Virus record (IMG/VR): IMGVR_UViG_3300047546_001496 | Span: 31,379-95,378 of that record | DNA length: 64,000 nt | Direction: 5' to 3' (one strand) | DNA from: a virus | Shown here: positions 1-26,433 of the stretch, one piece after another | Numbering within the stretch: position 1 is the first letter of the stretch | Layout of the letters: every line of letters begins with the position of its first letter | The notes under the pieces: generated by a model | Database searches by the model: none | What the model saw: the letters and a program-made list of their open reading frames with translations, nothing else | What the model was told of the DNA's origin: nothing | Translations under genes and position numbers: made by a program

Positions 1-380
1 ATAGGTGGTCTTACTGTACAAAAATCTTTATACATTGTATTTTCAACTTTAACATCTAAAGATCCAGCACTATTTTTGGTAAATATTAAATCACATGGTG
101 TCTTGAAAACATATCCAGTCATAAAGGCATCCATAATTGCAGGACATGCCTTCCATGTTGGTATCATTCCATAGTCGTCTACTGTACCCTCTTTAGGAAA
201 TGGACAAACTTCCTTTGGTGCCTTATAATATTCTCCGCTAATTGGGTTTTTAGCAAACCTATCTGCATCTTTATACCATTGTGGGATTTCTTTTTGTGTT
301 GATGAAGGTGTAGACTTACTTTCTTTTGTAAGCCACGGTCTATAAGATTTAAATATTACTGGTTTATAATTAGTATCCAC
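1..380 (-). CDS. Partial conserved phage protein (WKxCPAIxD..GY family), often found next to 2OG oxygenases
   Basis: Manual translation from GTG at 380 gives ...WKACPAIMDAFMTGYVFKTPCD...; paralog of 42090..42857; runs off the window edge. Confidence 0.7.
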   Translation of the reverse strand, partial: MDTNYKPVIFKSYRPWLTKESKSTPSSTQKEIPQWYKDADRFAKNPISGEYYKAPKEVCPFPKEGTVDDYGMIPTWKACPAIMDAFMTGYVFKTPCDLIFTKNSAGSLDVKVENTMYKDFCTVRPP

Positions 381-1092
381 CCTTATGTCCTAACTCATTA
401 ATATCAGTCATGATTACGACACAATACTTTGTACCGCTCTTCATTGGAAGAGATGCATGCTCATAAATGTAGTTAGATGGAAAGATAGCGATATCTCCTA
501 CTTTTGGAGTAAGGGTATATCCATCCAATCTTGGAAATTGAATTTCTCCACCCTCATAATCATCGTTTATATATATAACTGCAGAAACTGTAGCATTATA
601 TGCTGGACCATGATCTGCATGAATATTGAAGTGTTTTCCTTCGCCCTCATACTTTACAAAATTAAATGCTTCATAATAGATAACATTAATTCCCCAATAT
701 CTTGCATAATCATCTATACAAAATTTTAGTTTTTGATATATTTCTTCATGAAGATCAATAAGTTCGCCATTAAATTCATCTCTTGGACCAAGGTTTTCTT
801 GCTTATATTTAAAATCTACACAGTCTCTTGCTCTCTTGATAGGGGTTGAAGAATTTGTTACTTGCGCTTCAGACCATTTATATCTTTTTGTTCCATCAAG
901 ATTTGACTCAAGAGTTTTTATATATCTATCTGCATCATCTTGAGAAAATACATTTCTATAAATATTTAGGCCAAGTCCTGGATTTTCTACAACTATACCA
1001 TTTGATAAAGTTTTTGTAGGATATCTATTTGATGCAGTTTCTGACCTATCTTTTGTAAACCAAGGATTTTGATTTTCATCATAAATTTCCAT
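370..1092 (-). CDS. 2OG-Fe(II) oxygenase, prolyl 4-hydroxylase-like
   Basis: HAD...YINDDYEGGE.F...PKVG...FPS...HAS...K signature. Confidence 0.85.
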   Translation of the reverse strand: MEIYDENQNPWFTKDRSETASNRYPTKTLSNGIVVENPGLGLNIYRNVFSQDDADRYIKTLESNLDGTKRYKWSEAQVTNSSTPIKRARDCVDFKYKQENLGPRDEFNGELIDLHEEIYQKLKFCIDDYARYWGINVIYYEAFNFVKYEGEGKHFNIHADHGPAYNATVSAVIYINDDYEGGEIQFPRLDGYTLTPKVGDIAIFPSNYIYEHASLPMKSGTKYCVVIMTDINELGHKGGY

Positions 1093-1117
1093 TTGACTAA
1101 CCTTTCAGTAATTAAAG

Positions 1118-1555
1118 TTATGCTATTTCGCTAAAAGAAGTTCCATCCCAGTTATAAGAAAATCCTAACAAAAGATTTTGACTTGATGGTACCTTAAGCA
1201 AACTCATACCTGTCGCAACTGCTGCTGCATACATTTCTTTTTTTGGGCTATTTGTTGCAATTGCTACTCTAGCAACAACAGTATTATTAGATAAAAATGC
1301 ATATAGGTCAAATGAATCTAGTTCTTCTTGTGTTGCACTTGCTAAATTTGGACCTGCTGTTCCACCAGAAAAAGATGATCCGTTCCAGGTCGCTCCATAA
1401 AGTGCTGTTTGTTTATATGAACTTGCATCAATTGCTGTTATTGGTAAACCAGTTTCCCATGCAGAATCTAAAGTTTCCATTACCTCATTTTTTTGATGAC
1501 TAAAAAATCCAATGACATCATATACATTATCATTTTTTACTACAACTGCATACAT
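1118..1555 (-). CDS. Hypothetical protein
   Basis: 145-aa ORF with GGAG RBS; internal repeated WNGSSFS/WDGTSFS. Confidence 0.7.
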   Translation of the reverse strand: MYAVVVKNDNVYDVIGFFSHQKNEVMETLDSAWETGLPITAIDASSYKQTALYGATWNGSSFSGGTAGPNLASATQEELDSFDLYAFLSNNTVVARVAIATNSPKKEMYAAAVATGMSLLKVPSSQNLLLGFSYNWDGTSFSEIA

Positions 1556-1631
1556 TAATAGTCTCCTTTAGTACTTTTATTATAGCACATGTTAGTTATT
1601 GGGTACATATTTTTGTATGTACCCGCTAACT

Positions 1632-2582
1632 TTAACAAGCACATGTTCTTCCTGGACAACATACGTTACATCTCCAGCAATATCCGCAGAAACAGCCTCC
1701 GAAAGATGGTGGGAAGAATGGGAAGTAAGGGAAGAATGGGAAGAATGGTGGGAAGAATGGGAAGTAAGGGAAGTAAGGGAAGAATGGTGGGAAGAATGGG
1801 AAGTAAGGGAAGTAAGGGAAGAATGGTGGGAAGAATGGGAAGTAAGGGAAGAATGGGAAGAATGGTGGGAAGAATGGGAAGTAAGGGAAGAATGGGAAGA
1901 ATGGTGGGAAGAATGGGAAGAATGGAAAGAATGGGAAAAACGGCGGGAAGAATGGGAAATAAGGTGGGGTAGTGGTAACATTGTTTGTAGTTACACCAGT
2001 TGATTCTCCGCATGCATTTGTTAGATAAATTGTATATGTTTGTGATCCTGGAGATGATCCAGGGTCATTAGCAGCATATGATGTAGCAGATCCAGATATA
2101 CCAGTATAACTTGATCCATCTGAACCAGTAATTCTGATCGATGTTATTGTGCTACCTCCAGTTGCTGATCCGCTTGGAAGAGTCCATGATATTGTATTTG
2201 TATTAGCAGATGTAGCAGATGCTGAAACTCCTGTAGCATTGCTTGGACTTGTTGTAACTGTTACTGAAGATGAAGCAGATGATGCTGCTGATGTTCCAGA
2301 AGCATTTGTTGCTGTTACTGTAAATGTAGGTGTTGCTCCTGCAGCAATGCCAGTTACAGTAATTGGGGATGATGCTCCTGATGCTGACTGACCAGTGCTT
2401 GCATAAACAGTATAAGAAGTTGCTGGAGGGGATCCTGCAGGCAATGCAAAAGCAACTGATACAGCACCGTCATTATATGCTCTACCAGTACATACGTTGG
2501 TTGGAACAACACTAATTGGTGGCTTTGGCTCTAAGAAGTCGTTTGCTGCTGCTGACTTTTTACCTACTTTTTTATTTGCCAT
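1632..2582 (-). CDS. Putative virion protein: FN3-like domains, Phe/Pro repeat and Cys-rich C-terminus
   Basis: FTVTATNASGTS and YTIYLTNACGES FN3-like strands; about 85 aa of almost only F/P/Y; ends [20 protein letters not shown]. Confidence 0.75.
   Translation of the reverse strand: MANKKVGKKSAAANDFLEPKPPISVVPTNVCTGRAYNDGAVSVAFALPAGSPPATSYTVYASTGQSASGASSPITVTGIAAGATPTFTVTATNASGTSAASSASSSVTVTTSPSNATGVSASATSANTNTISWTLPSGSATGGSTITSIRITGSDGSSYTGISGSATSYAANDPGSSPGSQTYTIYLTNACGESTGVTTNNVTTTPPYFPFFPPFFPFFPFFPFFPPFFPFFPYFPFFPPFFPFFPYFPFFPPFFPYFPYFPFFPPFFPYFPYFPFFPPFFPFFPYFPFFPPSFGGCFCGYCWRCNVCCPGRTCAC
1705..1965. repeat. Tandem 9/12-nt repeats (GGGAAGAAT / GGGAAGTAA) encoding PFF/PYF units
   Basis: Directly visible. 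Confidence 0.95.
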
Positions 2583-2608
2583 TATTTATTCCCCTTTTTT
2601 ATTGTAAA

Positions 2609-5209
2609 TTATTTAAGATCTCCGTAAACAACCCAAGTATTTGCTGCTCTCTTCAAGAGAGTTGCAGATGACCATTGTGTACGTAAAGTTAATCCTGGAG
2701 TAGCATTTACTGTTACTCCTGCGCCTGCTGCAATTGCAACTCCGCCTGTATTTGTCTGAAGAACATCGATAGAAGTTCCGACTGGGAAATTCAATGTCGA
2801 GTCTGCAGGAATTGTAACGTTTACTGCTGAACCGCCAGTGTGAGAAACCTCAATAAGTGAGTCTCTTTCTGTTAGCGCTCCAAGAGTATACGCTGCTGTT
2901 TTCTGAATAATTGGTGTGCGTGAAGGTACACCTTCTTTTGTCTGTGTACCATCTGTAAAAATGATACCTGAAGAATCTACAGTAACTCCACCAGTAAATG
3001 ATGGTGCTGCAAGGTTTGCCTTAAGTGCAAGGCTTGATGAAAGACCTGAGATCTTTGATTGATCGATTGCTGCTGAAGCGCTAATGTCTCCGTTTACAAT
3101 TGTCCCATCTGCGATCATTGCTGATGTAACTCCACCAGTTGCGATATCAAGTGTTCCTGGTGTAGATTCTGTTAAACCAGAACCTGCTGTTACAGCCTTA
3201 GCAGCATTGAATGCTGCATATGTAACATTTGTTGTTCCAATTGTAATTGCTGATGTATTAGAGCAAACATATCCGTAACCTGAGTTTACTGTACCTTCAA
3301 GAACAAGAGTGAAGTCTCCACCCTTTAGTTCTCCATCTGGTGTATTGTCTGCATCTGTTGCTCTTGTCCATGAACCTGAAGCAACTACATAAATACCATT
3401 TTGTGTTTGTGTGGTTTGATCTTTTACGAGAACACGATCTCCAGCGATTACTGCTACGCCATCAATTGTTTGTGTTCCACTAAGTGTAATATTTCCTGTT
3501 GTAGCAACACGAACTGGCTGATGAAAATTAATTCCTGCAGTTACATTGTCTACATATGCTTTTGTTGCTGCATGTAGGTCAGAACTTGGTGCACCTGAAA
3601 GTGTGAGTGCTCCTGTCATTGTTCCGCCAGCAAGTGACAACTTAGAATCAATCTGTGTCTGAATTGCTGATGTTACGCCATCAACATATCCAAGTTCTGT
3701 TGCTGAAACATTTCCAATAGATGTTGTGCTTGGAAGAACAACTGTTCCTGTAAATGTTGGGCCAGCAAGGTTAGCCTTTAGATCAAGTGCTGTTTGTGTA
3801 GCAGTTGAAACTGGCTTATTAGCATCTGAAGTATTATCTACGTTGCCAAGACCAACCATTGACTTTGTGATACCTGAAACAGTACCAGTAAATGTTGGTG
3901 AAGCAAGATCAGCCTTTGCTGCTAAATCTGTTGTAAGGTTTGCAATCTTTGACTGTGCAATTGCTGCTGATGCATTTATATCAGCATTAACAATTGTTCC
4001 ATCTGCAATCTTAGCAGAAGTTACTGCTCCATCAAGAATTTTTGCTGTTGTTACAGAATCTCCAGCCAACTTATCTGCAGTTACATTGCTATTAACAATC
4101 TTTGCAGTTGTAACTGTGTTATCTGTTGGTGTTCTTGTATCAGATAAGCGAGAATCATTTGTAAGTACAAGATCTGCTGTGTCTGCAATACCGTGTACGC
4201 TTGTTGTATCTAATCTATGTGCTTCAATATCTGCAGTTAGTGCTAAGGCTGTAGTATCTGCAATTCCATGCACATTTGTTGCTGAGTTATGGTTTGATAC
4301 TGCAGTGTCTGCATAATCTTTTGTTGCAAGATCCTCAACATCAGCAATACCATGTACATTTGTTGTTAAAGCATTATGGTTTGCTACTGCTCCGTCTGCA
4401 GCATCAGAGGATGTATTGTCTACATATTCTTTTGTAGCAGCATCATCAGCATTTATAGGTGCTCCGATAAGGGTAAGCATGCCTGTCATTGTTCCACCAG
4501 TTATAGGAAGTTTGCTGCTTAATCCATTAGCCACAGTTGTTGCAAAGTTTTCATCATTAGCAATAGCATTTGAAAGTTCATTTAATGTATTTAATAGTTC
4601 TGGTGAACCAGCAACTATTGAATTAATTCTGCCTTGTACGAATTCGGTTGTTGCAATTTTTGTTGTATTATCAGTTCCAGCCTGAGTAGTTGCTACTGAA
4701 GTAGAACCAAGATCTGCACCTGTTAATGTTTTATTTGTTAGTGTTTGTGTTCCAGTCAGAGTTACTACTGTTGAATCAATATCAAATTGTTCTGAGCCTG
4801 AGTTCCAGTCAATACCTACACCAGCAAGCGCTGATTGATCAACTGTTGCGTTTGAAACAGCATCTGCTACATAATCTTTTGTAGCAAGATCGTCTGTATC
4901 TGCAATACCGTGCACATTTGTAGTAGCATCTGTGTGATCGGAGAGATTGTTTGCCACTGTGGTAAAGAAAGCAGGATCGTCGCCAAGAGAGGCAGCAAGT
5001 TCGTTAAGTGTATCCAATACACCTGGTGCACCATCTAGTATCGCATTTGCGTCTACATAATAGTTAAGTGCGGACCATGCTGATGATCCATTACCAATTT
5101 TAAATTTACCTGTGTCGGTTTCATAACCGATTTCACCTGCTGCTAGAGTTGGGTTTGCTCCCGTCCATTGGGCTGCAGTTCCTCTGCGCTGTTGCATTCT
5201 TGTTGCCAT
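2609..5209 (-). CDS. Tail fibre protein with Mtd-N-like N-terminus
   Basis: MATRMQQRRGTAAQW..NPTLAAGEIGYETDTGKFKIG; LDTLNELA and ATKxYVD fibre repeats. Confidence 0.85.
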   Translation of the reverse strand: MATRMQQRRGTAAQWTGANPTLAAGEIGYETDTGKFKIGNGSSAWSALNYYVDANAILDGAPGVLDTLNELAASLGDDPAFFTTVANNLSDHTDATTNVHGIADTDDLATKDYVADAVSNATVDQSALAGVGIDWNSGSEQFDIDSTVVTLTGTQTLTNKTLTGADLGSTSVATTQAGTDNTTKIATTEFVQGRINSIVAGSPELLNTLNELSNAIANDENFATTVANGLSSKLPITGGTMTGMLTLIGAPINADDAATKEYVDNTSSDAADGAVANHNALTTNVHGIADVEDLATKDYADTAVSNHNSATNVHGIADTTALALTADIEAHRLDTTSVHGIADTADLVLTNDSRLSDTRTPTDNTVTTAKIVNSNVTADKLAGDSVTTAKILDGAVTSAKIADGTIVNADINASAAIAQSKIANLTTDLAAKADLASPTFTGTVSGITKSMVGLGNVDNTSDANKPVSTATQTALDLKANLAGPTFTGTVVLPSTTSIGNVSATELGYVDGVTSAIQTQIDSKLSLAGGTMTGALTLSGAPSSDLHAATKAYVDNVTAGINFHQPVRVATTGNITLSGTQTIDGVAVIAGDRVLVKDQTTQTQNGIYVVASGSWTRATDADNTPDGELKGGDFTLVLEGTVNSGYGYVCSNTSAITIGTTNVTYAAFNAAKAVTAGSGLTESTPGTLDIATGGVTSAMIADGTIVNGDISASAAIDQSKISGLSSSLALKANLAAPSFTGGVTVDSSGIIFTDGTQTKEGVPSRTPIIQKTAAYTLGALTERDSLIEVSHTGGSAVNVTIPADSTLNFPVGTSIDVLQTNTGGVAIAAGAGVTVNATPGLTLRTQWSSATLLKRAANTWVVYGDLK

Positions 5210-5267
5210 TTATCTCTCCTTGTGGTATTTCTACCGTTTTATTTCTGTGCTTATTATAACATCAATT

Positions 5268-5723
5268 TTAGTTGAAGTTATCTGTTGCTACACCACCATC
5301 ATAGGTTGCTGTCCATGAGTTGGTGTTGTAATCTCCTCCAGAAACTGGTGTTCCTTGAGGATCATTAAAACTACCAGCGCTAACAAACTGGGATACTATG
5401 AAACCAGTTCCATCAATCGCTGTATCGTGAATATGCTGTGGAAGATTAAGGGTATCGTCAATTGTAGCCATGGTTAGCCATGAGCCATTGTAATAAACAT
5501 TAACTCTTGAGGTTAATGTATCAAACCATTGATCTCCATTTTCTGGTGTAGAGGGAGCGGTAGAACCGACAACCATGCTTCCTGCTACTGAGTCTACATA
5601 TTCCTTTGTAGCAGCATGATTATTTTCAGTAGGAGTACCTACGATTACAGATCCTCCGAAACTACCGCCGTTTCCGACCTGTAGTCCATTCTTGACTTTG
5701 AAATCTTTGTCTACTGTTGCCAA
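5268..5723 (-). CDS. Virion/tail fibre accessory protein
   Basis: KDFKVKNGL N-terminus shared with next gene; HAATKEYVD; APSTPENGDQWFD. Confidence 0.7.
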   Translation of the reverse strand: MATVDKDFKVKNGLQVGNGGSFGGSVIVGTPTENNHAATKEYVDSVAGSMVVGSTAPSTPENGDQWFDTLTSRVNVYYNGSWLTMATIDDTLNLPQHIHDTAIDGTGFIVSQFVSAGSFNDPQGTPVSGGDYNTNSWTATYDGGVATDNFN

Positions 5724-5753
5724 GATTTACCACTCCCTCTTTTATTTATTTTT

Positions 5754-7301
5754 TTACTTCAAAAGTGTTCCAACAACAGCCACTGTTGAGTTGTTGTTGA
5801 GAGTTGCTACACGAAGGCGTACATCTGAACCGTTTACATCTGCTGAAACAGATCCAAGTGAGCCGTTTGTTCCTACCATCGCATATTCTGTGATTGCCAC
5901 ATTGTCAGAAGTATCAAGAGTCAAAATAACTTTTGAAACTTCAGTATGTGAACCTTGAGCAATCTTTACAAGGAATTCAGCAGACTTGTAATCTGCCTTA
6001 GCCCATGAGACTGCTGTGCTTGTGCTTGCAGTTGCAACAGAAGCCTCTGCTGCTACCTGCTTTGCAATGCTTGCAATTTCTACTGCAGGGAAGTCAGGTG
6101 TGACTGCCTCAAGAGCAGATACTGCACGAGCATTTGTAAAGTAAAGGTTTGAAGAACCTTCTACAAGATCATCTGTATCAGAATCTGCAACACCGTTTTC
6201 TGCGGTAATTGTAAGACCAGATCCATTTCCAGTAATCTGAATGTTTGTAAGTGTTGCACTTGTTAGAAGTGCTGCTGCGTCTGTCTTTGCACGAGCAGTT
6301 GTGTAATAAAGGTTTGAACCTTCTGCAACATCATCTGTATCAAGATTATTAATACGAGTATTTGTTGCTGAGTCAAGACCATCAGCATAAGACTGTGCTG
6401 CTGTCTGTGCTGCTGCTGCAGAACCTGCTGCATCATAATTTACAGCCAAACCGTCTGCATAATCCTCTGCTGCACCCTGAGCATCATCAACATATTGCTT
6501 TGTTGCTGCATGGTTTGCTGATGTTGGAGCACCTGAAAGTGTCAAAGCACCTGTCATTGTGTCTCCAGCCTTAGCAACCTTTTCACCAATCTGTGTTCCA
6601 ATTGTTGTTGCAAAGCCAGCATCTGAGTTGATTGCTGCTGCTAATTCATTAAGAGTATCAAGAAGTGCTGGTGCACCATTTACAAGTGCTGCAACCTCTT
6701 GGTCTGTGTATGCATTTGCTGCTGTAATAGCATCTGCTTCTGCAGCATCTGCATATGACTGATAGGCAGTTGTGATTGCGCCTTCACGAGTATCTGTATA
6801 TGCCTTAGCATCATTTTCTGCAGCATCTGCATAGTTTTGGTATGCAGTAGTAATTGCAGTTTCACGAGTATCTGTATAGTCATTTGCATCGCTAATTGCT
6901 TCGCCTTTTGCGGTAGCAACTTCTGCATCTGTTGCAAATGAGCCATCAATTGTTGTTGAGATTTGTACGTTTGCTGAACCATTGAATGATACAGAACCTG
7001 TAACATCTCCAGTAAGTTCAATTGTACGAGAAGTCTCAAGAGTTGTTGCTGTATCTGCATTACCAGTTACATCACCAACGAGATCTGCTGTTATTACTCC
7101 CGCAGCAAAATTGCCTGAGCCATCACGCTTTACAACCTTGTCTGCTTCATTTGCTGAGGTGGCTGTTCCACCAATTAAGTTGACGATATAATTTTGATCG
7201 TCTGTTTTCTTTGTAAGAATATCGTGGTTGTTGATGGTACCTGTTGTGCCTTCAACAATCAGACCATTCTTTACCTTAAAGTCTTTTGTGACTGTTGCCA
7301 T
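5754..7301 (-). CDS. Tail fibre/virion structural protein
   Basis: LLDTLNELAAA, HAATKQYVD and two TDD.xEGSxNLY repeats. Confidence 0.8.
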   Translation of the reverse strand: MATVTKDFKVKNGLIVEGTTGTINNHDILTKKTDDQNYIVNLIGGTATSANEADKVVKRDGSGNFAAGVITADLVGDVTGNADTATTLETSRTIELTGDVTGSVSFNGSANVQISTTIDGSFATDAEVATAKGEAISDANDYTDTRETAITTAYQNYADAAENDAKAYTDTREGAITTAYQSYADAAEADAITAANAYTDQEVAALVNGAPALLDTLNELAAAINSDAGFATTIGTQIGEKVAKAGDTMTGALTLSGAPTSANHAATKQYVDDAQGAAEDYADGLAVNYDAAGSAAAAQTAAQSYADGLDSATNTRINNLDTDDVAEGSNLYYTTARAKTDAAALLTSATLTNIQITGNGSGLTITAENGVADSDTDDLVEGSSNLYFTNARAVSALEAVTPDFPAVEIASIAKQVAAEASVATASTSTAVSWAKADYKSAEFLVKIAQGSHTEVSKVILTLDTSDNVAITEYAMVGTNGSLGSVSADVNGSDVRLRVATLNNNSTVAVVGTLLK

Positions 7302-7316
7302 TTTTTATCTCCTTAT

Positions 7317-7763
7317 TTACGCCTTAAGTCCAATTCGTGCATAACGAACTGTGACTGGCTTAATTGCAGGATCTGGAGTAACCGTTAAGGATACTGTATT
7401 TCCAGCCCTTGAGACGCTAATGGTGCCAATATTCCCATCGTTGTCTATTGTTCCGTATTCGCTGACATTTACATTTGTACCGTCAACTAATACGGTCAAC
7501 TCTGTTGCATAAAATTTATTGTCTCCCGCAGTTATCTTAGCGATTGAAACAATATACTTGACCATACGCCATTCTGTTGCATCAAAATTATCAATTACTG
7601 TTGGATTCTCAATACCTGTAATTGTATTTTCATTATTGCCCATAGATCCAAGATCTGTAGAACGAGCAGAGGCGGAATCAATTAAATCTTCGTAATCTTG
7701 TTGAGAGGGACGATCTCCAGTCTCAAACTTTGTCTTTAGTGTTGGTATTGATATCTTTGCCAT
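7317..7763 (-). CDS. Virion structural protein
   Basis: FETGDRPSQQDYEDLIDS; C-terminal domain similar to the C-terminus of 5754..7301. Confidence 0.65.
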   Translation of the reverse strand: MAKISIPTLKTKFETGDRPSQQDYEDLIDSASARSTDLGSMGNNENTITGIENPTVIDNFDATEWRMVKYIVSIAKITAGDNKFYATELTVLVDGTNVNVSEYGTIDNDGNIGTISVSRAGNTVSLTVTPDPAIKPVTVRYARIGLKA

Positions 7764-7786
7764 GTTGGTATTATAACTCCTTTTTA

Positions 7787-8035
7787 TTATAAAATATAGT
7801 TGCTATATCCTATAATTTGTAGTGGGATTGGGGGTGGATTATTCTTAGAATACCCAAACGAACTAACATTAATAAACTGCACTCTAAAAGGCAAAACCTC
7901 CTGTAGTTTAACCTTTGGTGTTATATCATTTATTCTTATTGATCTTTTGTCTAATTCTTTAATCTGAGCATGTGCTAAACGATGTGTTGTATTATAAACT
8001 TCTTTATAGGCAGGGGTTAAATTTTGATTTATCAT
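7787..8035 (-). CDS. Hypothetical protein
   Basis: ORF translationally coupled to upstream gene. Confidence 0.55.
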   Translation of the reverse strand: MINQNLTPAYKEVYNTTHRLAHAQIKELDKRSIRINDITPKVKLQEVLPFRVQFINVSSFGYSKNNPPPIPLQIIGYSNYIL

Positions 8036-8421
8036 TCCGTAACATCTTCAATGATAACCATGGAACCTTTGGCTACCGTCCAGACTCTTCCTTCTGACAA
8101 AAGTTCTGTCAACTGAATATCAAAGATATCTCCAGTTTCTAAAAGTTCTGATTGAGATGATAATAGTGTTACAGTAAAACTTCCTTCTACATCTTGAAAT
8201 TCAATTGGTTGTGGCTCAAGAGAAATAATTACTTCGTCTGTTGATGGACGATAAATATCCATCTTAATTTCCCAATCATCTAAGTATAGTGGTTCTCTTG
8301 CATCGTTTGTTACATAAACTCTAAATGATGCAGAGTCTCCACGAACTACAGTCCATCTAACTTCTGGTGGTAAAGCACCTAATGCATATGAGTCTGTTGT
8401 CTGATTTCGGAAGGTAGTCAT
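8032..8421 (-). CDS. Virion/baseplate-type protein (VVRGD family)
   Basis: WTVVRGDS...FDIQ; paralog of 20728..21126 and 17884..18324. Confidence 0.6.
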   Translation of the reverse strand: MTTFRNQTTDSYALGALPPEVRWTVVRGDSASFRVYVTNDAREPLYLDDWEIKMDIYRPSTDEVIISLEPQPIEFQDVEGSFTVTLLSSQSELLETGDIFDIQLTELLSEGRVWTVAKGSMVIIEDVTE

Positions 8422-8439
8422 AATGCGATTATATCATAT

Positions 8440-8958
8440 TTAGGCTAATCCAGCCTTCAATGCTCCCCATGTTCCATTGCCTTTTGCTTGTACAACAATA
8501 ACACCAGTTGATGTTCCATTGACAGCAACAATTCCAATTGCTCCACCTGTTGTTGTATTTGTTAAAGAACCGTATTGATCTACATATAAAAGAGATCCTG
8601 GAGTTCCAAGACCACTTGTATTTACATTTGTTAATACTCCAGCAACAACAACTTCTCCACTTCCGCCATGTGTTATTTCTGATTTTGTCAAACCAAGAAA
8701 TGGTTTATCGTCTGATAATGTTGATGTAAATAATGATATAGTTGTTTTATTATTTGTATATCCTGTAGCATATACTGGTTTTGCTGAACCTATAGTTGAG
8801 CCTGAGTTATTTATTACCTTTACCCGAACATTTGAAGCATCAAGAGATGCAAGCGCATCATCAACAGTATCTGCTAGTTTTTTAATATCACCATGTACAT
8901 TAACAGGATCAGTTGATTCTGGATATTTTAAATCATATTTATTAGTTTCTTGTGCCAT
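8440..8958 (-). CDS. Putative structural protein
   Basis: Gly-rich beta-strand ORF in the structural module. Confidence 0.55.
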   Translation of the reverse strand: MAQETNKYDLKYPESTDPVNVHGDIKKLADTVDDALASLDASNVRVKVINNSGSTIGSAKPVYATGYTNNKTTISLFTSTLSDDKPFLGLTKSEITHGGSGEVVVAGVLTNVNTSGLGTPGSLLYVDQYGSLTNTTTGGAIGIVAVNGTSTGVIVVQAKGNGTWGALKAGLA

Positions 8959-9064
8959 AGAAAATAATTATACCATGTTTGACTAAATCCCCTAAATTGT
9001 GTTATACTAGGAAGTAATATGGCACCCTTTAACAAGGTGTCATTACGTTTCTAAGGAGGAAACT

Positions 9065-9628
9065 ATGATTAACTTTATGAATAATAATAGGCAAATCATT
9101 GGCACACTCAGCATATTAGCAATGTTTGGCGTTTGGTCAAATGCTGCTAATGCTTCTGAAAACCGATTAAGTGACAGTAAATCTGTCATGCTACAGGGAT
9201 CTTTGATGGCCACGGAAGTGGCCAAAAGTGTTTCTATGGCTAAAGAAGATCAGTTAGAAAAATATAAAAGTGCTATAAATCTATCTGACAAAGACCTTAA
9301 AAACTTACTATCTTTAGTAGGTTTTGAAGGCGAAAATCTTAAGGAGGCTTGGGCTTTTGCTAAAAAAGAATCTAATGGAAGACCTTTAGCCCTTAATATT
9401 AGTAAAAGAACTGGAGATAGTTCTTATGGCTTATTTCAAATAAATATGATTGGCGACCTAGGTCCTGACCGTAGAGATAAGTTTAATTTAGAGTCCAATG
9501 TTGAACTCTTTAATCCAGTACTAAATGCTCAAGTAGCATACCACATGAGCAACGGTGGAAAAGACTGGACTGCATGGAAAGGCATTACACCAAAGGTGAA
9601 GTCGTTAATGCGTAACTTTCCCAATTAA
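9065..9628 (+). CDS. Secreted lysozyme-like/SLT transglycosylase
   Basis: Signal peptide; KKESNG...SYGLFQINM...NP..NA...WTAW; own TTGACT..TATACT promoter. Confidence 0.85.
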   Translation: MINFMNNNRQIIGTLSILAMFGVWSNAANASENRLSDSKSVMLQGSLMATEVAKSVSMAKEDQLEKYKSAINLSDKDLKNLLSLVGFEGENLKEAWAFAKKESNGRPLALNISKRTGDSSYGLFQINMIGDLGPDRRDKFNLESNVELFNPVLNAQVAYHMSNGGKDWTAWKGITPKVKSLMRNFPN

Positions 9629-10362
9629 TAGTTGATAAAATTATTATGGCTTCCGTGATAATATTTTATAGGAAGACGCTTATAATCATCTTTATCAAAT
9701 AAATAGTAGAGGGCCTCCCCCCACAAGGGGAGGTCTCCCCATCTATAGATATAAATATTATTTGAATTATCAACTTTTTCTATATATTCTTTTAATTCGT
9801 TATTTGCTCTTATTTTATCTAAATTAAAACCTACTAAATTTGTATATGGTCCAGATGGACTTTTTGGACCTTTGTCTGTTTTTATATTCTCTAATGAAAA
9901 ATTGTTTAGTCCTTTTGTAACATTATCATTATCAGCAGACCATTCGCCATATACACATACATTATTTTTTAATTCGTCAAAAATATTATCAATGTTGCTT
10001 CTTATTAAACAATCATCATCAATTCTTAATACTAAATTATATGCATCTAAATATTTTAAAAAATCTATAAACCAAAAATGACACATGTGCCTATATGCCC
10101 AACTAAATCCTAAGCCAGACTCTTTATCAAATTCTATATTATTTATGGGAGTAAACTCTGGTATTGTAATAAAATTTAAACATAAAGATGTTTTAGACCT
10201 AATATGTCTTTGATTTTCAAAACTAATATTTCCTTCATGAAAAATTAAAATATCATAATTATCATTAATGTTTTCTTCAATAAATTTATTTCTAATTATA
10301 AGATTGCCATAGTCATAATTACCAGAATAACCTTTGCATAAAGTGATTATTGCTTTTTTCAT
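9625..10362 (-). CDS. GT15 (Kre2/Mnt1)-like alpha-1,2-mannosyltransferase
   Basis: YRHMCHFW, RIDDD and YRWGDLP motifs. Confidence 0.7.
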   Translation of the reverse strand: MKKAIITLCKGYSGNYDYGNLIIRNKFIEENINDNYDILIFHEGNISFENQRHIRSKTSLCLNFITIPEFTPINNIEFDKESGLGFSWAYRHMCHFWFIDFLKYLDAYNLVLRIDDDCLIRSNIDNIFDELKNNVCVYGEWSADNDNVTKGLNNFSLENIKTDKGPKSPSGPYTNLVGFNLDKIRANNELKEYIEKVDNSNNIYIYRWGDLPLWGEALYYLFDKDDYKRLPIKYYHGSHNNFINY

Positions 10363-11315
10363 TAATTTTCTCCTGGTATGTCTATATATTTTATACCATC
10401 TAAATTATACATCCAGTGTGGTCTGTTGCCTTCTATAAAATTAACATTAATTTCTTCTAAACCATCTACTCCATATATAAGTCTTTTATCTATTACTGGA
10501 CTATATGTTTTTGCAGTTTTAGACAAAAAGCATGCCCACCAACTAAAACTACTATTTGCTCTAAATACTGTTCTTGCAAAATATATTTTTAAAAAGTCTT
10601 CTAGCCAGTCAAACATTAGTCCTGGTCTATAGTTAGATCCTTCGGGATATCTCCATCCAAAATTTTCTATTTTTGGCCTATCTAAATGCCAAAGATTTTT
10701 ATCATCATCTGAGATCCATAAAATTTTATTTTTATCAAAATTAAATTTTTCAAAAGCATTAAAGTAAGAATCTTTTGAAATTACAGAATATCCTTGAGTA
10801 TTATTTTTATTATAATTTACATCAGAAATATCTCCTCTTCTTAAATGAGCAACATCATATGTTCCTTGTTTATTGCTCCAATACTTGTATGCTTCTGTAT
10901 TTTTTACTTCATCTGAAAATTCAAAAACTTCTAATAAAAAATTTTTTGACATTTTACTATAAACATCAGATCCATAAGCGCATACGCTATCAAAAAATAC
11001 TGGATCTAAATATTTTGCATAATTATATGGAGCCTGTTCAGGATTTATTAAAAATGAATTTGGATAAATATCTTTTACTTTTTTTATTAGTGCATTTCTT
11101 GTATGATGTGCTGGATGACTCTGATTTAACTGATGTCTTAATTCATCATTTTCAGAAACTATATGAAATTGATTTTTAAATAATTTTGTTCCTTCCCAAT
11201 CTGATGGCAGGACAAACTGAGAACCTGTTAATTTATTGTATGTAGCGCCATAAGCATACTGGTGCATTCGATTGCCAAACCTGCCATGCCAATGTGATAA
11301 AAGTATAAAAGACAT
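10362..11315 (-). CDS. GT11-like alpha-1,2-fucosyltransferase
   Basis: GRFGNRMHQYA, HLRRGD and ANSSFSWWA motifs. Confidence 0.8.
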   Translation of the reverse strand: MSFILLSHWHGRFGNRMHQYAYGATYNKLTGSQFVLPSDWEGTKLFKNQFHIVSENDELRHQLNQSHPAHHTRNALIKKVKDIYPNSFLINPEQAPYNYAKYLDPVFFDSVCAYGSDVYSKMSKNFLLEVFEFSDEVKNTEAYKYWSNKQGTYDVAHLRRGDISDVNYNKNNTQGYSVISKDSYFNAFEKFNFDKNKILWISDDDKNLWHLDRPKIENFGWRYPEGSNYRPGLMFDWLEDFLKIYFARTVFRANSSFSWWACFLSKTAKTYSPVIDKRLIYGVDGLEEINVNFIEGNRPHWMYNLDGIKYIDIPGEN

Positions 11316-11322
11316 AAGAATA

Positions 11323-12348
11323 TTATATCTTAGACTTTATCCATTCATATGTTTTTGTTATTCCTTCTAATAATGACATAGAATAATCCCAATTTAATTT
11401 TTCTCTAATAAGTGTATTGTCTGAATTTCTACCACGAACTCCAGTTGGTCCATCTATGTGTATTTTATTTAATTTTTTATTTTCTATAGAACATGCAATA
11501 TCCACTAACTCATTTATTGATACACGCTCTTCTGAGCCTATATTAATTGGACCAGTAAAGTTAGATTTCATTAATTGTCTGGTTGCCTCTATACATTCAT
11601 CAATATATAAAAATGATCTAGTTTGATTTCCATCTCCCCAAATTTCTATTGAGTCTGTAGCCTGTATTACTTTTCTACATATTGCTGCTGGAGCCTTTTC
11701 TTTTCCGCCCTGCCAAGTACCCTCTGGCCCATATATATTATGATATCTGGCTACTGCAACTGGTATATTATAATTTTTATTGAATGCTAAAAATATTCTT
11801 TCACTAAATAATTTTTCCCAACCATACTCGCTGTCTGGTTCTGCAGGGTATGCGTCAGACTCTTTTAATCCTAAATTATCAATGTCCATTTGTTTATATT
11901 CTGGATATGCACAGGCAGAACTTGAATAAAATATTTTAGTTTTATTTATTAATTTTTCAGAATTAAGTCTTAGTTGTGCTCTTAACAAATTAAGATTAAT
12001 TAGTGCAGAATTTTCCATAATGTTTGCATCATTGTCTCCAGTAAATATATATCCTGCTCCACCCATGTCTGCTGCAAACTGATACACCTCATCAAATGTA
12101 TCTACTAACTGATATGGTATTTCTCTATAAAAATTTCCAGAGTATCCTTTAAATTTAATTACCTTTTCCATATTTTCATAATCTGAAAGATCTCTAATGA
12201 TAAATTCATCAGCCTTCGTTTTAGAAAATGGTGGCTCTTTAATGTCAACACCTCTAACCCAATAGCCTTCTTCTTTAAGTCTATTTACCATATGGTTTCC
12301 AATAAAACCACCAGCGCCTAAGACTAATGCTGTCTTCATTGTCATCAC
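11323..12348 (-). CDS. GDP-mannose 3,5-epimerase-like NAD-dependent epimerase
   Basis: GAGGFIG, AADMGG.G.I, SSAC.YPE, YGWEKL, GGKEKAPAA.CRK, GVRGRNSDN. Confidence 0.85.
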   Translation of the reverse strand: MMTMKTALVLGAGGFIGNHMVNRLKEEGYWVRGVDIKEPPFSKTKADEFIIRDLSDYENMEKVIKFKGYSGNFYREIPYQLVDTFDEVYQFAADMGGAGYIFTGDNDANIMENSALINLNLLRAQLRLNSEKLINKTKIFYSSSACAYPEYKQMDIDNLGLKESDAYPAEPDSEYGWEKLFSERIFLAFNKNYNIPVAVARYHNIYGPEGTWQGGKEKAPAAICRKVIQATDSIEIWGDGNQTRSFLYIDECIEATRQLMKSNFTGPINIGSEERVSINELVDIACSIENKKLNKIHIDGPTGVRGRNSDNTLIREKLNWDYSMSLLEGITKTYEWIKSKI

Positions 12349-12899
12349 ATCGATTCTTTATCTTTTTCTTTTCTTATATGGGTATATAAATATTCTGGTC
12401 CTTCTGTAAAATACCAATGATCTGGCTTACAATAAAATAAAAATATATTACAAACCATATTATTATCTGGATCTGTAAATTCTTCTCTCCAGTGTTCTTG
12501 ATCATTACCGTATGTCATTAATGCATCATTTTCCATTAATGTGTATGGCTTTCCCTCTACCCATAAATCCCAAGGTGTCTTTTGAAATACACAAAAGTTG
12601 ATATGGTATGTACAAGCATTATCATCTTTATGCTTCCAGAGTTTTGCATCTTTACCCTCGTAAATTGACATTAAGCACCAGGAAGGTAGTATGTCGTCTT
12701 CTTCAAAATGTTCTCTTGCTAAATCTAATAACTTATTATGTAAATCTTTAAGTTCTTCTGTGTTAGCCCATTGATGTCTGCCAAAAGAATTATCATAATT
12801 TGGCTGTGTTGACCACATCCTCATGGCATATTGTTGTATTTTTTTTAAATCTTCTGCAGGCAAAATTGTTTTAACAATTTCAGGTTCTTTAATCTTCAT
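12345..12899 (-). CDS. 2OG-Fe(II) oxygenase-like protein
   Basis: LWKHKD...YG...EHWRE facial-triad pattern. Confidence 0.7.
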   Translation of the reverse strand: MKIKEPEIVKTILPAEDLKKIQQYAMRMWSTQPNYDNSFGRHQWANTEELKDLHNKLLDLAREHFEEDDILPSWCLMSIYEGKDAKLWKHKDDNACTYHINFCVFQKTPWDLWVEGKPYTLMENDALMTYGNDQEHWREEFTDPDNNMVCNIFLFYCKPDHWYFTEGPEYLYTHIRKEKDKESM

Positions 12900-12900
12900 C

Positions 12901-13140
12901 TTACCATTTTCCTATAGGACATGTTGCTTTTTCTAATTTTGTTTTTGCTACCATAAAACAACCACATTTTTTACATTGTTTAGTTAATTTAATTAATTCT
13001 GGACATTGCTTACATATAGAATATCTTTCTTCTGCTACCTCGTCAGATGCCCACTCTGTTTCTGGATTAACCAAATCCCATGGCCTTGTATCTCCAAGAT
13101 TTTCTTTATATTTTTGCCATGCAGTTTTCTTTTCTGACAT
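12901..13140 (-). CDS. Small Cys-rich protein (DUF6171-like)
   Basis: R..IC..C...QCKKCGCFM..KT.L...CPIGKW; paralog of 23283..23483. Confidence 0.7.
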   Translation of the reverse strand: MSEKKTAWQKYKENLGDTRPWDLVNPETEWASDEVAEERYSICKQCPELIKLTKQCKKCGCFMVAKTKLEKATCPIGKW

Positions 13141-13178
13141 AAAACTCCTTATTTTTATAAGTATTTATACATTATACA

Positions 13179-16100
13179 CTAACAAGCGCAATCTTGTCCA
13201 GGGCAGCAAACATTACATCTCCAGCAGTATCCGCAGGTACATGGACCAGTCGGTGTCGGTGTTGGTGTCGGTGATGGTGGGAAATACGGGAATGATGGTC
13301 CGACAGGTTCAAATGTTGGGAAGAACGGCGGGAAGAATGGGAAGTAAGGGAAGAATGGGAAGAACGGCGGGAAGAATGGGAAGTAAGGGAAGAATGGGAA
13401 GAACGGCGGGAAGAATGGGAAGTAAGGGAAGAATGGGAAGAACGGGAATGAAGGACCAGGTGCTGTTGTAAAACATTCTCCTAAACTACTATCCCAATAA
13501 TATCCGCAAGCCTGGCATCCACTTTGTGTTAATAACCATATATTTTCAGGAGCACATTGATTTGTAGGTGTTGGCGTAGGAGTAGGAGTTGGTGTAGGAG
13601 TAGGAGTTGGTGTAGGAGTTGGGGTTGGAGTAGGTGTAGGTGTTGGGGTTGGTGTAGGTGTAGGAGTTGGGGTAGGTGTAGGTGTTGGGGTAGGTGTTGG
13701 GGTAGGTGTTGGCGTAGGTGTTGGGGTAGGTGTTGTGCAAGATGGTGTTCCAGATTGAGGGGTAGATCCGCAAACCCATCCTATTGGAGGATAGCCGTTT
13801 GCATTTTCTTGCGTTGTGTACAAAGTAGCGCAATCAATATTAAATGGTCCAAAAGGTCCTTGTGGAGATCCATTTAACGCACAATATCCATAGTAGTTAG
13901 TAACAGAAACTGGTGTAGGTGTCGGAGTTGGAGTAGGTGTCGGAGATGGAGTTGGTGTCGGAGTAGGTGTTGGAGTTGGAGTAGGTGTCGGAGTTGGTGT
14001 CGGAGTTGGTGTCGGTGTTGGTGTTGGTGTAGGTGTTGGTGTCGGTGTTGGAGTTGGTGTTGGGTTTGAAGGCATTACGCATTCTCCCAACTGTTCATCC
14101 CAGACCAATCCACACTGAGCACATTGTGACGAACTTAATAAACTCCAGTCTCCATCACATATACTGGTTGGAGTAGGTGTTGGTGTCGGTGTCGGGGTAG
14201 GCGTTGGTGTTGGTGTCGGGGTAGGAGTTGGTGTTGGGGTTGGAGTTGAACTACACCCAATACCCTCATAGAACATTAATCCAGAAGAACCGTCTGAACA
14301 CTTATACCATTTTTGTTGATAATTGCTACATCCTGGGCAAGATCCGTCTGGACATGATCCAATATAAATACCGCCACTAACTACGCCATATGTAGCATCA
14401 TTTGGACAAATTACTGTCGGAGTTGGAGTAGGAGTTGGTGTTGGCGTAGGAGTAGGAGTTGGTGTAGGAGTTGGGGTTGGAGTAGGTGTAGGTGTTGGGG
14501 TTGGTGTAGGTGTAGGAGTTGGAGTAGGTGTAGGTGCACAACTTGCAGTTCCTTCAGATACAGTTGCACCGCAAGCCCATCCATTTGGCGGGTATCCATT
14601 TGTATAATCAAACTCATTATACAAAGTATTGCAAAGAGAAGTTACTCTATCTTGCTCTGTAGTTCCTTGTACATTTCTAGATGTATTATACGGACCAACT
14701 AATTGATATGTTCCTTGATCACAATAGGAGTACCAAACCCCCGTTAGATAAAAGGTGAACTACACTGTCCTCCAGACCATGTATATCCACAACTTGTACA
14801 TTGAGTTGAATTAGTTATGCTACCCGCATTCTCTGGATCTGGACATGTCAACGTGGGGGTCGGTGTCGGAGTTGGAGTTGGAGTAGGGGTAGGTGTTGGT
14901 GTCGGTGTTGGTGTTGGGGTTCCTCCACATGATAGTGTTGGAATTGTTCCAGAAACTCCAGACTGTGTTTGTGTAATAGAACCTCCAGAACATTGTGAAT
15001 TCATAGAAGCATAAGCCTCAGTAAATCCAGAACTACTTATTCCAGTTACTTGAGATCCAGTAGTGCTACAGCATCCTGTTGCCCAATATTGATTACCTAC
15101 TGGTGTAGGAGTAGGTGTAGGTGTAGGTGTTGGAGTTGGGGTAGGTGTTCCTCCACAACTTGCAGTTCCTGCTGCTTGTGTTGCTCCACAAGCCCATCCA
15201 TTTGGTGGATATCCGTTTGTATAATCCCACTCATTGTAAAGATTATTACATATTGAAGAAACTGTGCCTACTGCTGAATAAGAGTATGGTCCTGATAATT
15301 GATAAGTTCCTTGATCACACCAACTGTACCATACCGTCGTTTGGCTAGATGTAGGTGTTGGGGTAGGAGTAGGTGTTGGGGTTGGTGTTGGGGTAGGTGT
15401 AGGGGTTGGAGTAGGTGTTGGGGTAGGTGTAGGTGTAGGAGTTGGAGTTGGCGTAGGATTAAAGAATGGGAATGATGGATTAAAGAATGGGAATGATGGT
15501 GGTGTAGGAGATGGAGTAGGCGTAGGTGTTGGAGTAGGTGTTGGGGTTGGTGTGGGAGTTGGTGTCGGGGTAGGCGAAGAAGATTCTGCTATATCACCAT
15601 AAGTAATCCATGTATCTGAACCTAATTTAAGTAAAGTTATTTTTCCATATTGGGCATCAATAGAGGCAGTTCCACCTTTTGCATAAACGGTTACTCCTGG
15701 GACACCAGAAACTGTAACATTTCCAGTACCCATTCTAATAATATTTATTTTTTGTCCAACTATAAATGGAGTTGTGCTATTTAATGGAATAGAAATTGTT
15801 GTATTGGTTGCAGAATTAACAGTTATTGTTTTACCTGGATCTGAAATAGCAATTGTATAGTTTTCGTCTTTAGAGACAAATGTTTCTGTGTCTAGTAATC
15901 CAATCCATTGTGTGCCATTGTAAATTTGTAGTTGATCTATATCGGTTCCACTATCGGTTTGTCTAACAAAACAAATAATACCTTTTTGTGGATTTGTAAT
16001 TGCAGCATCTCTAGCAGTAGGATTTAAAAATAAATTAACGCCACCCTTTGCACGAATAACATCATTAAAGGTTACTGGTTGTCCGAATGTATGAACTTGT

Positions 16101-16210
16101 GTCCATGTATATGGAACATTTGTATTCGCAACACCAGCAAGTGCATACCACTTTTCAGTTGCAGAGTCATATGCATATACTACTTTACTACCTGGAGCGA
16201 TTTGTGCCAT
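13179..16210 (-). CDS. Large (Thr-Pro)n / Cys-rich-repeat putative virion protein, split by a -1 frameshift near 14750
   Basis: ORFs 14744..16210 and 13179..14624 share repeats; the downstream frame is open, with no plausible start, up to about 14759. Confidence 0.75.
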
Positions 16211-19587: not shown

Positions 19588-19868
19588 TACATTCCTGCTT
19601 CTAGTGATGCTTTAAGAACTGCTAGTTTCATTTCATTAACAGAAGAAATGGCGTATATCGCATCATTTCCATTTAATTCAATTGAGAATGAATGGTTTGG
19701 CATAATTCTAAAACCATAGTTTGTTGATGATACTGTATTTGATCCACCAATATAAATATAACCAGAAGCATTTACATTTTGTAAAGTTATGTCCATTCCA
19801 GAATGTTTACCATTTGGAGTAAGCCTAGTTGATGTTGTGTTTGATAAAGTAATTAATGAGTGATCCAT
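19587..19868 (-). CDS. Hypothetical structural protein
   Basis: ORF coupled to both neighbours. Confidence 0.55.
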   Translation of the reverse strand: MDHSLITLSNTTSTRLTPNGKHSGMDITLQNVNASGYIYIGGSNTVSSTNYGFRIMPNHSFSIELNGNDAIYAISSVNEMKLAVLKASLEAGM

Positions 19869-25487: not shown

Positions 25488-25520
25488 ACTTGTATTAGAT
25501 AAAAAAGAAAGGACAATAAA

Positions 25521-25754: not shown

Positions 25755-25769
25755 AAAATAAATAAAAAT

Positions 25770-25807: not shown

Positions 25808-25844
25808 TCAGCAAAAGAAAATCTCTTGAAAGGAGAATTGTAAA

Positions 25845-26403: not shown

Positions 26404-26433
26404 AAAACTACTAAAGAAAGGTTGGTTCAACTT

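Follow-up and report, generated by a model that had tools for sequence, protein, structure and literature searches.

Why does a phage place genes for proline-rich, cysteine-tailed proteins directly ahead of genes for 2-oxoglutarate (2OG)/Fe(II) oxygenases, twice within a short distance, and what might these enzymes act on? The question is raised by IMG/VR virus record IMGVR_UViG_3300047546_001496, a 95.4-kb viral contig judged 87% complete, of which we analysed bases 31379-95378 (64,000 nucleotides, GC content ~35%; hereafter the window, whose positions are used unless genome positions are stated). An initial annotation had proposed that the phage hydroxylates and glycosylates its own Pro/Thr-rich virion proteins, and every gene that it named was recovered on the minus strand with unchanged coordinates. 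Our preferred reading, which we hold with slightly more confidence than doubt, is that two cassettes in the window belong to a single recurrent system by which the phage modifies its own fibre-region proteins post-translationally, through a chemistry that is predicted here. In 160 related viral contigs, the tails or linkers of these proteins covary with the neighboring enzymes in a way that favors a functional link. 2OG/Fe(II) oxygenase genes are abundant in marine and freshwater phages and are usually filed as auxiliary metabolic genes without a known substrate. Here and in hundreds of related contigs, such genes directly follow extreme Pro-rich fibre proteins and covary with the type of tract, and a tailed-protein/enzyme arrangement that recurs so often is more than chance.

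Two runs of tailed-protein and enzyme genes in an actinophage

We take the virus to be a long-tailed actinophage, in agreement with the initial annotation, because its portal is 47 to 49% identical to the portals of Streptomyces cluster-BE-type siphophages, its genome carries a WhiB gene and a tape-measure gene of 3030 amino acids (aa) lies upstream. The host is most likely a low-GC aquatic actinobacterium. Megablast of the region against cultured phages returned no match. The first run of genes is as follows.

3-380, minus strand: 3' part of a DUF6065-like gene (259 aa, starting past the window edge), the second of two in the array, detected by jackhmmer with the DUF6065 gene
370-1092, minus strand: prolyl 4-hydroxylase (P4H)-like 2OG/Fe(II) oxygenase, the last of seven in tandem (PF13640, 3e-11)
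1118-1555, minus strand: s145, a 145-aa protein often found between the tailed protein and DUF6171 or an oxygenase
1632-2582, minus strand: FN3-like protein of 316 aa (weak fn3 match) with a (PFF/PYF/PPFF)n tract and an eight-Cys tail, candidate substrate 1
1706-1964, minus strand: 39-nucleotide tandem repeat coding for a 13-residue Pro/Phe/Tyr unit (Tandem Repeats Finder: 6.6 copies, 94% matches)
2609-5209, minus strand: tail fibre protein of 866 aa, directly upstream of candidate substrate 1 (tblastn: minor tail and tail fibre proteins of Gordonia and other phages)

Candidate substrate 1 contains ~87 residues that are purely P, F or Y, arranged in 13-residue units, and ends in the eight-Cys tail [22 protein letters not shown]; tblastn of this protein against cultured phages found no match. 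The tandem row of seven oxygenases that ends with 370-1092 extends across the window start, so run 1 is the edge of an array. Six further PF13640 genes lie upstream of the window start, together with two DUF6065-like genes and a class II ribonucleotide reductase, and the seven oxygenases form a row at genome positions 25421-32470. With two more elsewhere, the genome encodes a total of nine P4H-like paralogues and one further oxygenase family, which is represented in the second run.

9625-10362, minus strand: glycosyltransferase (GT) of GT15-like type, a relative of Kre2/Mnt1-type mannosyltransferases (PF01793, 19.2 bits)
10362-11315, minus strand: GT11-like (fucosyltransferase-type) glycosyltransferase (phrog_2644 glycosyltransferase, 2.5e-8)
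11323-12348, minus strand: GDP-mannose 3,5-epimerase (GME; E of 3e-92 to Arabidopsis GME 2c59; PF01370, PF16363)
12345-12899, minus strand: ox184, a separate 2OG/Fe(II) oxygenase family, 184 aa (AlphaFold model, Foldseek, iron triad)
12901-13140, minus strand: DUF6171, 79 aa, the cassette marker gene (PF19668, 7e-7; six invariant Cys)
13179-14624, minus strand: candidate substrate 2, 481 aa, with five (TP)n linkers, Cys modules, a PFF tract and an eight-Cys tail (from the translation)
14744-16210, minus strand: candidate substrate 3, 488 aa, with a fibre-tip domain followed by (TP)n linkers and Cys modules (PHROG tail/virion families, residues 89-208)

The fibre-tip domain of 14744-16210 matches the end of the 866-aa fibre (31% identity, E of 2e-6), and relatives of this protein consist of the ~210-aa tip domain only. 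In 13179-14624, the Cys modules are small with an even number of Cys, the PFF 13-mer is identical in type to the unit of 1632-2582, and the C-terminal tail reads [21 protein letters not shown]. The tails of 1632-2582 and 13179-14624 are near-identical; they differ by eight synonymous and four nonsynonymous codons in 22, and the Cys-tail peptide is therefore under selection. The fibre-tip domain, the weak fn3 match and the position within a fibre module make the tailed proteins candidate virion proteins.

The order of tailed protein, small gene and oxygenase that had been described as occurring twice is indeed present in both runs. A true duplication is not supported: only the Cys tails are homologous, the small genes (1118-1555 and 12901-13140) are not, and the oxygenases (370-1092 and 12345-12899) belong to different families by jackhmmer.

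The two Pro/Phe arrays also have a particular codon usage. Phe is encoded by TTC 42 times and by TTT twice within 1706-1964, and 66 times and twice, respectively, when 13317-13448 is included; the 866-aa fibre gene is TTT-biased, 9 to 5. The Pro codons of the two arrays are unlike (CCA in one, CCG/CCA in the other).

The oxygenase array accompanies a Pro/Phe tail

The comparison set consisted of 80 loci seeded with 1632-2582, analysed from >329 IMG/VR stretches with relatives of this protein, and 80 loci seeded with DUF6171, analysed from >566 stretches with relatives. Among the former, most relatives of 1632-2582 carry a (PFF)n tail and a variable Cys-rich end, and one clade has FGVFGFSP-type repeats. 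The gene order is kept: a tip gene, a variable island, a lysozyme-like gene, six structural genes, the 866-aa fibre and the tailed FN3 protein (the last two syntenic in 78/80 loci), followed by s145 and DUF6171, each where present, the oxygenase/DUF6065 array and the reductase.

We then compared loci with at least 6 kb of downstream sequence. All 37 loci with a Pro/Phe-tailed protein had 4 to 10 tandem P4H-like oxygenases and exactly two DUF6065 genes, whereas the 15 loci without such a tail had at most one oxygenase, with DUF6065 missing in 14 of them. In these 15, the slot was taken by other genes, including those for a sulfotransferase-like protein, an Asp/Asn beta-hydroxylase and a ~220-aa family. 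The co-occurrence of repeat-tailed genes with modifying enzymes, which the initial annotation had called for, was thus found for Pro/Phe tails with oxygenase arrays; a second association, of Thr/Ser/Ala-Pro linkers with GT and GDP-sugar genes, is described below.

The ~220-aa family has 30 members in 17 loci, gives no Pfam match and replaces the array where the FN3 protein has Phe/Gly repeats (for example, locus L020 at 2278-4264, L032 at 10759-11433, L052 at 5807-6526 and L063 at 11229-12526). In several loci (L018, L062, L065, L067, L070, L071, including L071 1011-2207, and L082), a Hint-like end (...ILTHNK or ...LVHNK) of the tailed FN3 or fibre protein replaces the Cys knot, which suggests self-cleavage or ligation of the repeat-tract end.

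The small gene s145 occupied 30 cassette positions across the 80 related loci. It had no match in Pfam, PHROG, NCBIfam or PDB, and its 281 homologues are all unnamed, none with any domain. A role as a tail-fibre assembly chaperone, suggested by position and a W-x-G motif, was not supported.

Collagen-like fibre proteins as alternative substrates

The fibre module also encodes collagen-like proteins, which the earlier work had not considered and which are candidate hydroxylase substrates, either instead of the tailed proteins or in addition to them.

18341-19060, minus strand: collagen-like (GXY)13 fibre protein (PF01391, 1e-6) with X-Pro-Gly and X-Lys-Gly sites
19868-20728: second collagen-like (GXY)n fibre protein, with the same kinds of site and a weak CBM5/12 match (23.5 bits, under the 26.2 cut-off)

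These proteins allow a different account, in which the P4H-like enzymes act on the GXY fibres, the Pro-rich tracts are unmodified linkers or sticky tails, and the Cys ends are disulfide or metal knots whose folding is aided by DUF6171. We regard this account as improbable, although it has several points in its favor. The best PDB sequence matches of 370-1092 are a collagen-type P4H, LH3 and P3H1, and a P4H of Bacillus anthracis acts on collagen-like peptides. PT linkers are common and need no modification. In cyanophage S-IOM18, DUF6171 adjoins a thioredoxin-like CPQC protein, which would suit Cys chemistry. However, complete genomes of the array-less clade retain a collagen-like homologue (87% and 43% identity) with only 2 to 6 scattered oxygenases, so collagen alone fails to explain the array; because of this, we rank oxygenases that serve only collagen-like proteins lower. 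Moreover, the array goes with the Pro/Phe tail rather than with collagen, and sugar genes go with Thr/Ser-Pro linkers.

DUF6171 loci link sugar genes to linker type

DUF6171 loci gave a second view of the system. The nearest large protein upstream of DUF6171 had a Pro-rich linker and a Cys-rich end in 39/60 loci, compared with 8 of ~340 other large open reading frames. Downstream content was counted in the 54 loci with at least 4 kb beyond the marker gene. An oxygenase lay within three genes after DUF6171 in 32 of these, recognizable sugar genes followed in 25 (GME in 12, GT60-like in 8, GT61-like in 6 and GT11-like in 5), and a radical S-adenosylmethionine (SAM)/SPASM enzyme in two. The cassette occurs at two different genome sites, each within a co-directional fibre module.

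Sugar genes (GME, GT11, GT60 or GT61) followed 28 of 33 proteins with Thr/Ser/Ala-Pro or poly-Thr linkers, compared with 1 of 27 proteins that were Pro/Phe-only or linker-less (Fisher test, 6e-11). Linker type also varied with the enzyme: VTPA repeats preceded 6/7 GT61 loci and APV the seventh, and PT preceded most loci with GME and GT11. One related locus (L093) matches the window cassette gene for gene, including a homologue of the GT15-like 9625-10362, and another (L053) encodes an FGFTP-repeat peptide, DUF6171, an oxygenase, a GT11-like enzyme and GME.

Several relatives carry an enzyme of PF11397, the family to which the GT60 transferase that adds GlcNAc to the hydroxyproline of Skp1 belongs. 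It was present in 14 related DUF6171 loci (8 of them among the 54), and in loci L010 and L011, DUF6171 is fused to PF11397, whose Pfam name is 'Glycosyltransferase (GlcNAc)'. That Skp1 transferase, Gnt1, is a hydroxyproline-specific member of GT60 (PMC6939170). Searching PDB sequences with a GT60-like relative found nothing, and Pfam searches on ten further neighbor families of DUF6171 cassettes yielded almost nothing.

The radical-SAM/SPASM enzyme adjoins a GT60-like gene in L039 (526-1461), L091 (6622-7557) and L101 (7176-8153), which hints at cross-linking of the Cys-rich ends. Such a gene would also fit a pathway resembling that of ribosomally synthesized and post-translationally modified peptides, in which Cys-rich C-terminal peptides are cross-linked, perhaps Trp-halogenated, and released as bioactive peptides, the large N-terminal parts being leaders. 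Beyond the SPASM enzyme, the Hint-like self-cleaving ends of some homologues and the conserved Trp in the Cys context of many tails, with a Trp halogenase in the genome, would agree with this idea. We consider it very unlikely: fibre-tip, FN3 and fibre N-terminal domains are present in these proteins, neither a protease nor an exporter turned up in the cassettes, and the radical-SAM enzyme is rare. The Trp that many Cys tails keep ([12 protein letters not shown]) is a possible halogenation site.

Cultured phages with DUF6171 include Synechococcus myophages, P-SS2, and Xanthomonas, Stenotrophomonas and other phages. In S-IOM18, DUF6171 follows fibre-like genes and the thioredoxin-like gene and precedes a 2OG-like gene annotated as endonuclease V. 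This gene (L168, 5239-5844, 'DNA endonuclease V') contains His/Asp-rich stretches (HNDHNFDH; HFHH), which suggest that it is a candidate 2OG oxygenase. PHROG families named endonuclease also match the window oxygenase, and the endonuclease label is for this reason probably wrong in many cyanophage records. In Synechococcus phage S-SRM01, the genes that precede DUF6171 encode a tail fibre protein, a Trp halogenase and an adhesin tip; the halogenase (L170, 2327-3784) lies between tail fibre genes, just ahead of the adhesin-tip gene and DUF6171.

In the window, a near-consensus promoter-like site (TGGACA, 18 nucleotides, TATAAT) at 13171-13200 on the minus strand overlaps the end of 13179-14624, just before DUF6171. 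The run-2 enzyme genes may thus form a separate transcription unit, with the qualification that promoter-like matches in the region as a whole are not above chance.

Predicted activities of the cassette enzymes

The oxygenase 370-1092 scores 44.6 bits against PF13640 (curated cut-off 27). Its best PDB sequence matches are the B. anthracis prolyl 4-hydroxylase (3itq and 5hv0, 5e-4), followed by LH3 and P3H1, so that its nearest solved relatives appear to be protein prolyl or lysyl hydroxylases, at weak E-values, and its activity is predicted. The AlphaFold model of ox184 (predicted local distance difference test [pLDDT] score of 82) has the double-stranded beta-helix of 2OG oxygenases, and its top PDB match is the Pseudomonas putida P4H 4j25 (template modeling [TM] score of 0.63). 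Further Foldseek matches include PHD2, AlkB and the chlorovirus enzyme vCPH (5c5t); at least 500 PDB matches reached E ≤ 0.001, and all among the matches listed are 2OG oxygenases. The HxD...H iron triad (H90, D92, H136) is invariant in six family members. By sequence, ox184 had no Pfam or NCBIfam match and an empty PDB search; one of its homologues reaches PF13532 at only 16 bits. NCBIfam searches of the small and unknown proteins added nothing.

The DUF6065-like proteins probably have a dUTPase fold. A paralogue of the 3-380 gene matches PF19541 at 1e-26, and the best PDB matches of the DUF6065 model (pLDDT 70, moderate) are nearly all dUTPases, with one same-fold dCTP deaminase. C37 is invariant in the family, there is no invariant His, and a PDB sequence search with DUF6065 found nothing.

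The continuation of run 2 into GME, GT11 and GT15 genes held firmly for the first of the three. Residues 9-341 of 11323-12348 align to residues 34-342 of 2c59, the next family scores 6.5e-23, and the translation contains the N-terminal NAD-binding Gly motif GAGGFIGNH at residues 11-19. For the other two, the labels lie under Pfam cut-offs, and the ESM Atlas points in the same direction as the labels. The putative GT11 enzyme 10362-11315 had no Pfam match and an empty PDB sequence search, and its homologue in L053 scores 18.8 bits against PF01531 (cut-off 23.9). In the ESM Atlas, 26/30 feature matches fell in viral PF01531 clusters (0.97) and the predicted structure matched a GT11 cluster (TM score of 0.85, by target). 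We treat this resemblance as a lead, not as proof of membership; such an enzyme could use GDP-L-galactose. The PF01793 match of 9625-10362 is under the cut-off of 25 and confined to the C-terminal 56 residues, and the E-value against PDB 1s4n is 0.26. All 30 of its feature matches in the ESM Atlas (top three 0.97-0.99) fell in viral clusters with PF01793 in 16 to 41% of members, so the language-model resemblance to GT15 is likewise a lead only.

Putative tailoring genes and a metabolic alternative

Further tailoring genes had been anticipated elsewhere in the window, and a carbamoyltransferase gene and the following sulfur genes are present.

46592-47335, minus strand: sulfotransferase-like protein (jackhmmer link to L052 4632-5288, which itself matches PF03567 at 2e-5)
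55147-55905, minus strand: adenosine 5'-phosphosulfate (APS) kinase-like protein (PF01583, 2e-14)
58903-59484: second sulfotransferase-like copy

Relatives of 46592-47335 directly follow the tailed gene in L052, L031 and L026, and the APS kinase-like protein is a possible source of 3'-phosphoadenosine 5'-phosphosulfate (PAPS) for sulfation. A Trp halogenase is encoded at 53117-54649 (1e-104), ~50 kb from the oxygenase array.

Such a gene complement could be viewed differently, with the oxygenases, halogenase, sulfotransferases and GTs as auxiliary metabolic, secondary-metabolite or host-envelope genes that act on small molecules, host glycans or host proteins and lie beside fibre genes because the site is a hypervariable island. 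Iyer et al. 2010 took the equivalent array of phage Syn9 as metabolite biosynthesis (PMC2938197). The Trp halogenase, TauD, carbamoyltransferase and luciferase-like genes of the genome, the placement of the sugar genes within a 28% GC island, and the hypervariable site between the tip gene and the lysozyme-like gene all agree with a metabolic role. We nevertheless judge this role unlikely, as it leaves unexplained why the enzyme set shifts with the tail or linker type of the adjacent protein, why DUF6171 tracks Cys-tailed proteins and is fused to a polypeptide-type GT, and why the cassette immediately follows such a tailed protein at each of its two sites. In addition, Pfam scans of window and locus proteins revealed neither a peptide synthetase nor any other gene that would make a scaffold.

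DNA modification was also considered as the main explanation and rejected, because both the GT families and the P4H-like matches suggest that proteins or glycans are the targets, and because of the covariation with tails and linkers.

A proposed pathway for modification of fibre-region proteins

From gene identities, folds, order and co-occurrence, we infer the following pathway. A full cassette comprises a fibre-associated protein with a low-complexity Pro-rich tract and usually a Cys-rich knot, s145, DUF6171, at least one P4H-like oxygenase and often GTs and a nucleotide-sugar enzyme. In the infected cytoplasm, the oxygenases would hydroxylate tract residues, most likely proline, and the Pro/Phe/Tyr tail of 1632-2582 would be served by the seven-gene array and two dUTPase-fold partners. 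In the second cassette, the epimerase would convert host GDP-mannose to GDP-L-galactose. The GT11-like enzyme, supplied via the epimerase, would then attach L-galactose, and the GT15-like enzyme, fed straight from host GDP-mannose, would attach mannose, the acceptors being Thr or hydroxyproline residues in the (TP)n linkers. GT11 enzymes usually transfer L-fucose, of which L-galactose is the 6-hydroxy form, and the predicted use of L-galactose follows from this known family chemistry. The product would be a mucin- or extensin-like stalk bearing small Cys-knot modules, presumably carried on the virion and comparable to the decorated wall proteins of plants. DUF6171 may bring the enzymes to their substrate.

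Relatives carry the same logic with other enzymes, namely Skp1-hydroxyproline-type GT60, GT61 and radical-SAM/SPASM enzymes. A broader reading, which we put forward tentatively as somewhat less than an even prospect, is that fibres of aquatic phages are made extensin- or mucin-like while still in the bacterial cytoplasm, by batteries of prolyl-hydroxylase-like enzymes that act on Pro/Phe and Thr-Pro tracts and by swappable GT sets (GT60, GT61, or GT11 with GT15 and GDP-mannose epimerase) that then add sugars, with DUF6171 as an adaptor to Cys-knot-tipped substrates.

Several observations weigh against the modification of fibre-region proteins. The matches of the oxygenases to protein hydroxylases are weak (5e-4), the fold of ox184 resembles AlkB and small-molecule oxygenases roughly as closely as it does P4H, and GT11 and GT15 membership is under curated cut-offs. 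The window was found to have no GT60 (PF11397), which leaves priming on Thr or hydroxyproline without an assigned enzyme, and the halogenase, TauD, carbamoyltransferase and luciferase-like genes would suit small-molecule chemistry. The sugar genes lie in an island of low GC and are rare near the tailed FN3 gene (0-2/80 loci), and in Stenotrophomonas phage Moby, DUF6171 has no fibre context. The number of independent events is also small. In the FN3-region tree, a single clade holds 13 of the 15 loci without a Pro/Phe tail and the remaining two sit on long branches, so the tail/array link represents one to three evolutionary changes. The tree of DUF6171, a short protein, yielded only two supported independent pairs, and the linker/sugar test under phylogenetic control had no power. 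We regard the modified fibre envisaged by the initial annotation as partly supported.

Relation to known systems

A close precedent is the Synechococcus phage Syn9, in which ten dioxygenases lie in tandem and are accompanied by two Trp halogenases and a dUTPase-fold protein that carries a conserved Cys; its authors saw no substrate and proposed that the array makes metabolites (Iyer, Abhiman, de Souza, Aravind 2010, PMC2938197). The present phage shares the row of divergent, classical 2OG/Fe(II) dioxygenases and the dUTPase-fold protein with its conserved Cys, and its genome also encodes a Trp halogenase. Unlike in Syn9, the array here directly follows a Pro/Phe/Tyr-tailed fibre-region protein and tracks that tail across related phages, the halogenase is distant from the array, and the host is an actinobacterium rather than a cyanobacterium. 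The same study described bacterial operons in which beta-hydroxylases, sulfotransferases and PAPS synthetase accompany tail-collar or collagen-like proteins, with predicted hydroxylation followed by sulfation (PMC2938197). Our phage resembles these in its sulfotransferase-like genes and APS kinase, and its relatives in placing a sulfotransferase directly after the tailed gene, but the operons are cellular with Gly-rich or tail-collar substrates, whereas the tracts here are Pro/Phe and Thr-Pro in a phage.

In the Skp1 pathway of Dictyostelium and Toxoplasma (PhyA, then Gnt1 of GT60 and further transferases; PMC6939170, PMC3515798), a cytoplasmic P4H is followed by soluble nucleotide-sugar GTs, as proposed here, and cassette relatives carry PF11397 domains, fused to DUF6171 in two cases. 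It differs in that the window lacks GT60, that the target here would be long repeats of structural proteins and not a single proline of a regulator, and that the sugars would be mannose and L-galactose.

Chlorovirus PBCV-1 combines a virus-encoded P4H (vCPH), to whose structure the ox184 model aligns (TM score of 0.63), with virus-encoded Pro-rich repeats. Its own Pro-rich repeat proteins are presumably the vCPH substrates. PBCV-1 infects algae and has one enzyme, whereas the phage described here, a virus of bacteria, encodes nine P4H-like paralogues, a second oxygenase family, partner proteins and linked GTs. Mycobacteriophages reportedly glycosylate their virions (work by Freeman et al. in 2023, reference 61 of PMC12801897), with GT genes beside structural genes, capsid and tail-tube extensions as acceptors, and no hydroxylases. 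These actinophages share with ours the placement of GT genes beside structural genes and virion proteins as proposed acceptors; ours differs by its predicted hydroxylases, other GT families (GT11-like and GT15-like) and GDP-mannose epimerase.

Prolyl hydroxylation with O-glycosylation in eukaryotes, the chlorovirus P4H, mycobacteriophage virion glycosylation and the Syn9 dioxygenase array were already known. New are the pairing of such enzymes with specific fibre tails in bacterial viruses and DUF6171 as a marker. If the proposal is correct, 2OG oxygenases of aquatic phages would gain a virion role instead of a metabolic one, and a bacterial virus would for the first time be known to have a protein hydroxylation pathway, and likewise one that links hydroxylation to glycosylation. 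Host recognition and the physical properties of fibres would each gain a further layer from such a pathway, and its compact pairs of enzyme and substrate could be used to produce hydroxylated or glycosylated repeat proteins in bacterial cells.

Paralogues outside the cassettes

Three further members of the array families lie on the opposite strand.

39452-40201, plus strand: P4H-like oxygenase paralogue outside the array (PF13640, 4e-5; oxygenase-family member by jackhmmer)
42090-42857, plus strand: third DUF6065-like (dUTPase-fold) paralogue (DUF6065-family member by jackhmmer)
44322-45005, plus strand: P4H-like oxygenase paralogue (PF13640, 3e-8)

Six tRNA genes (Met, Arg-TCT, Asn, Asp, Glu and Thr-TGT) lie at 42902-46441, among oxygenase paralogues and luciferase-like and glutathione-peroxidase-like genes.

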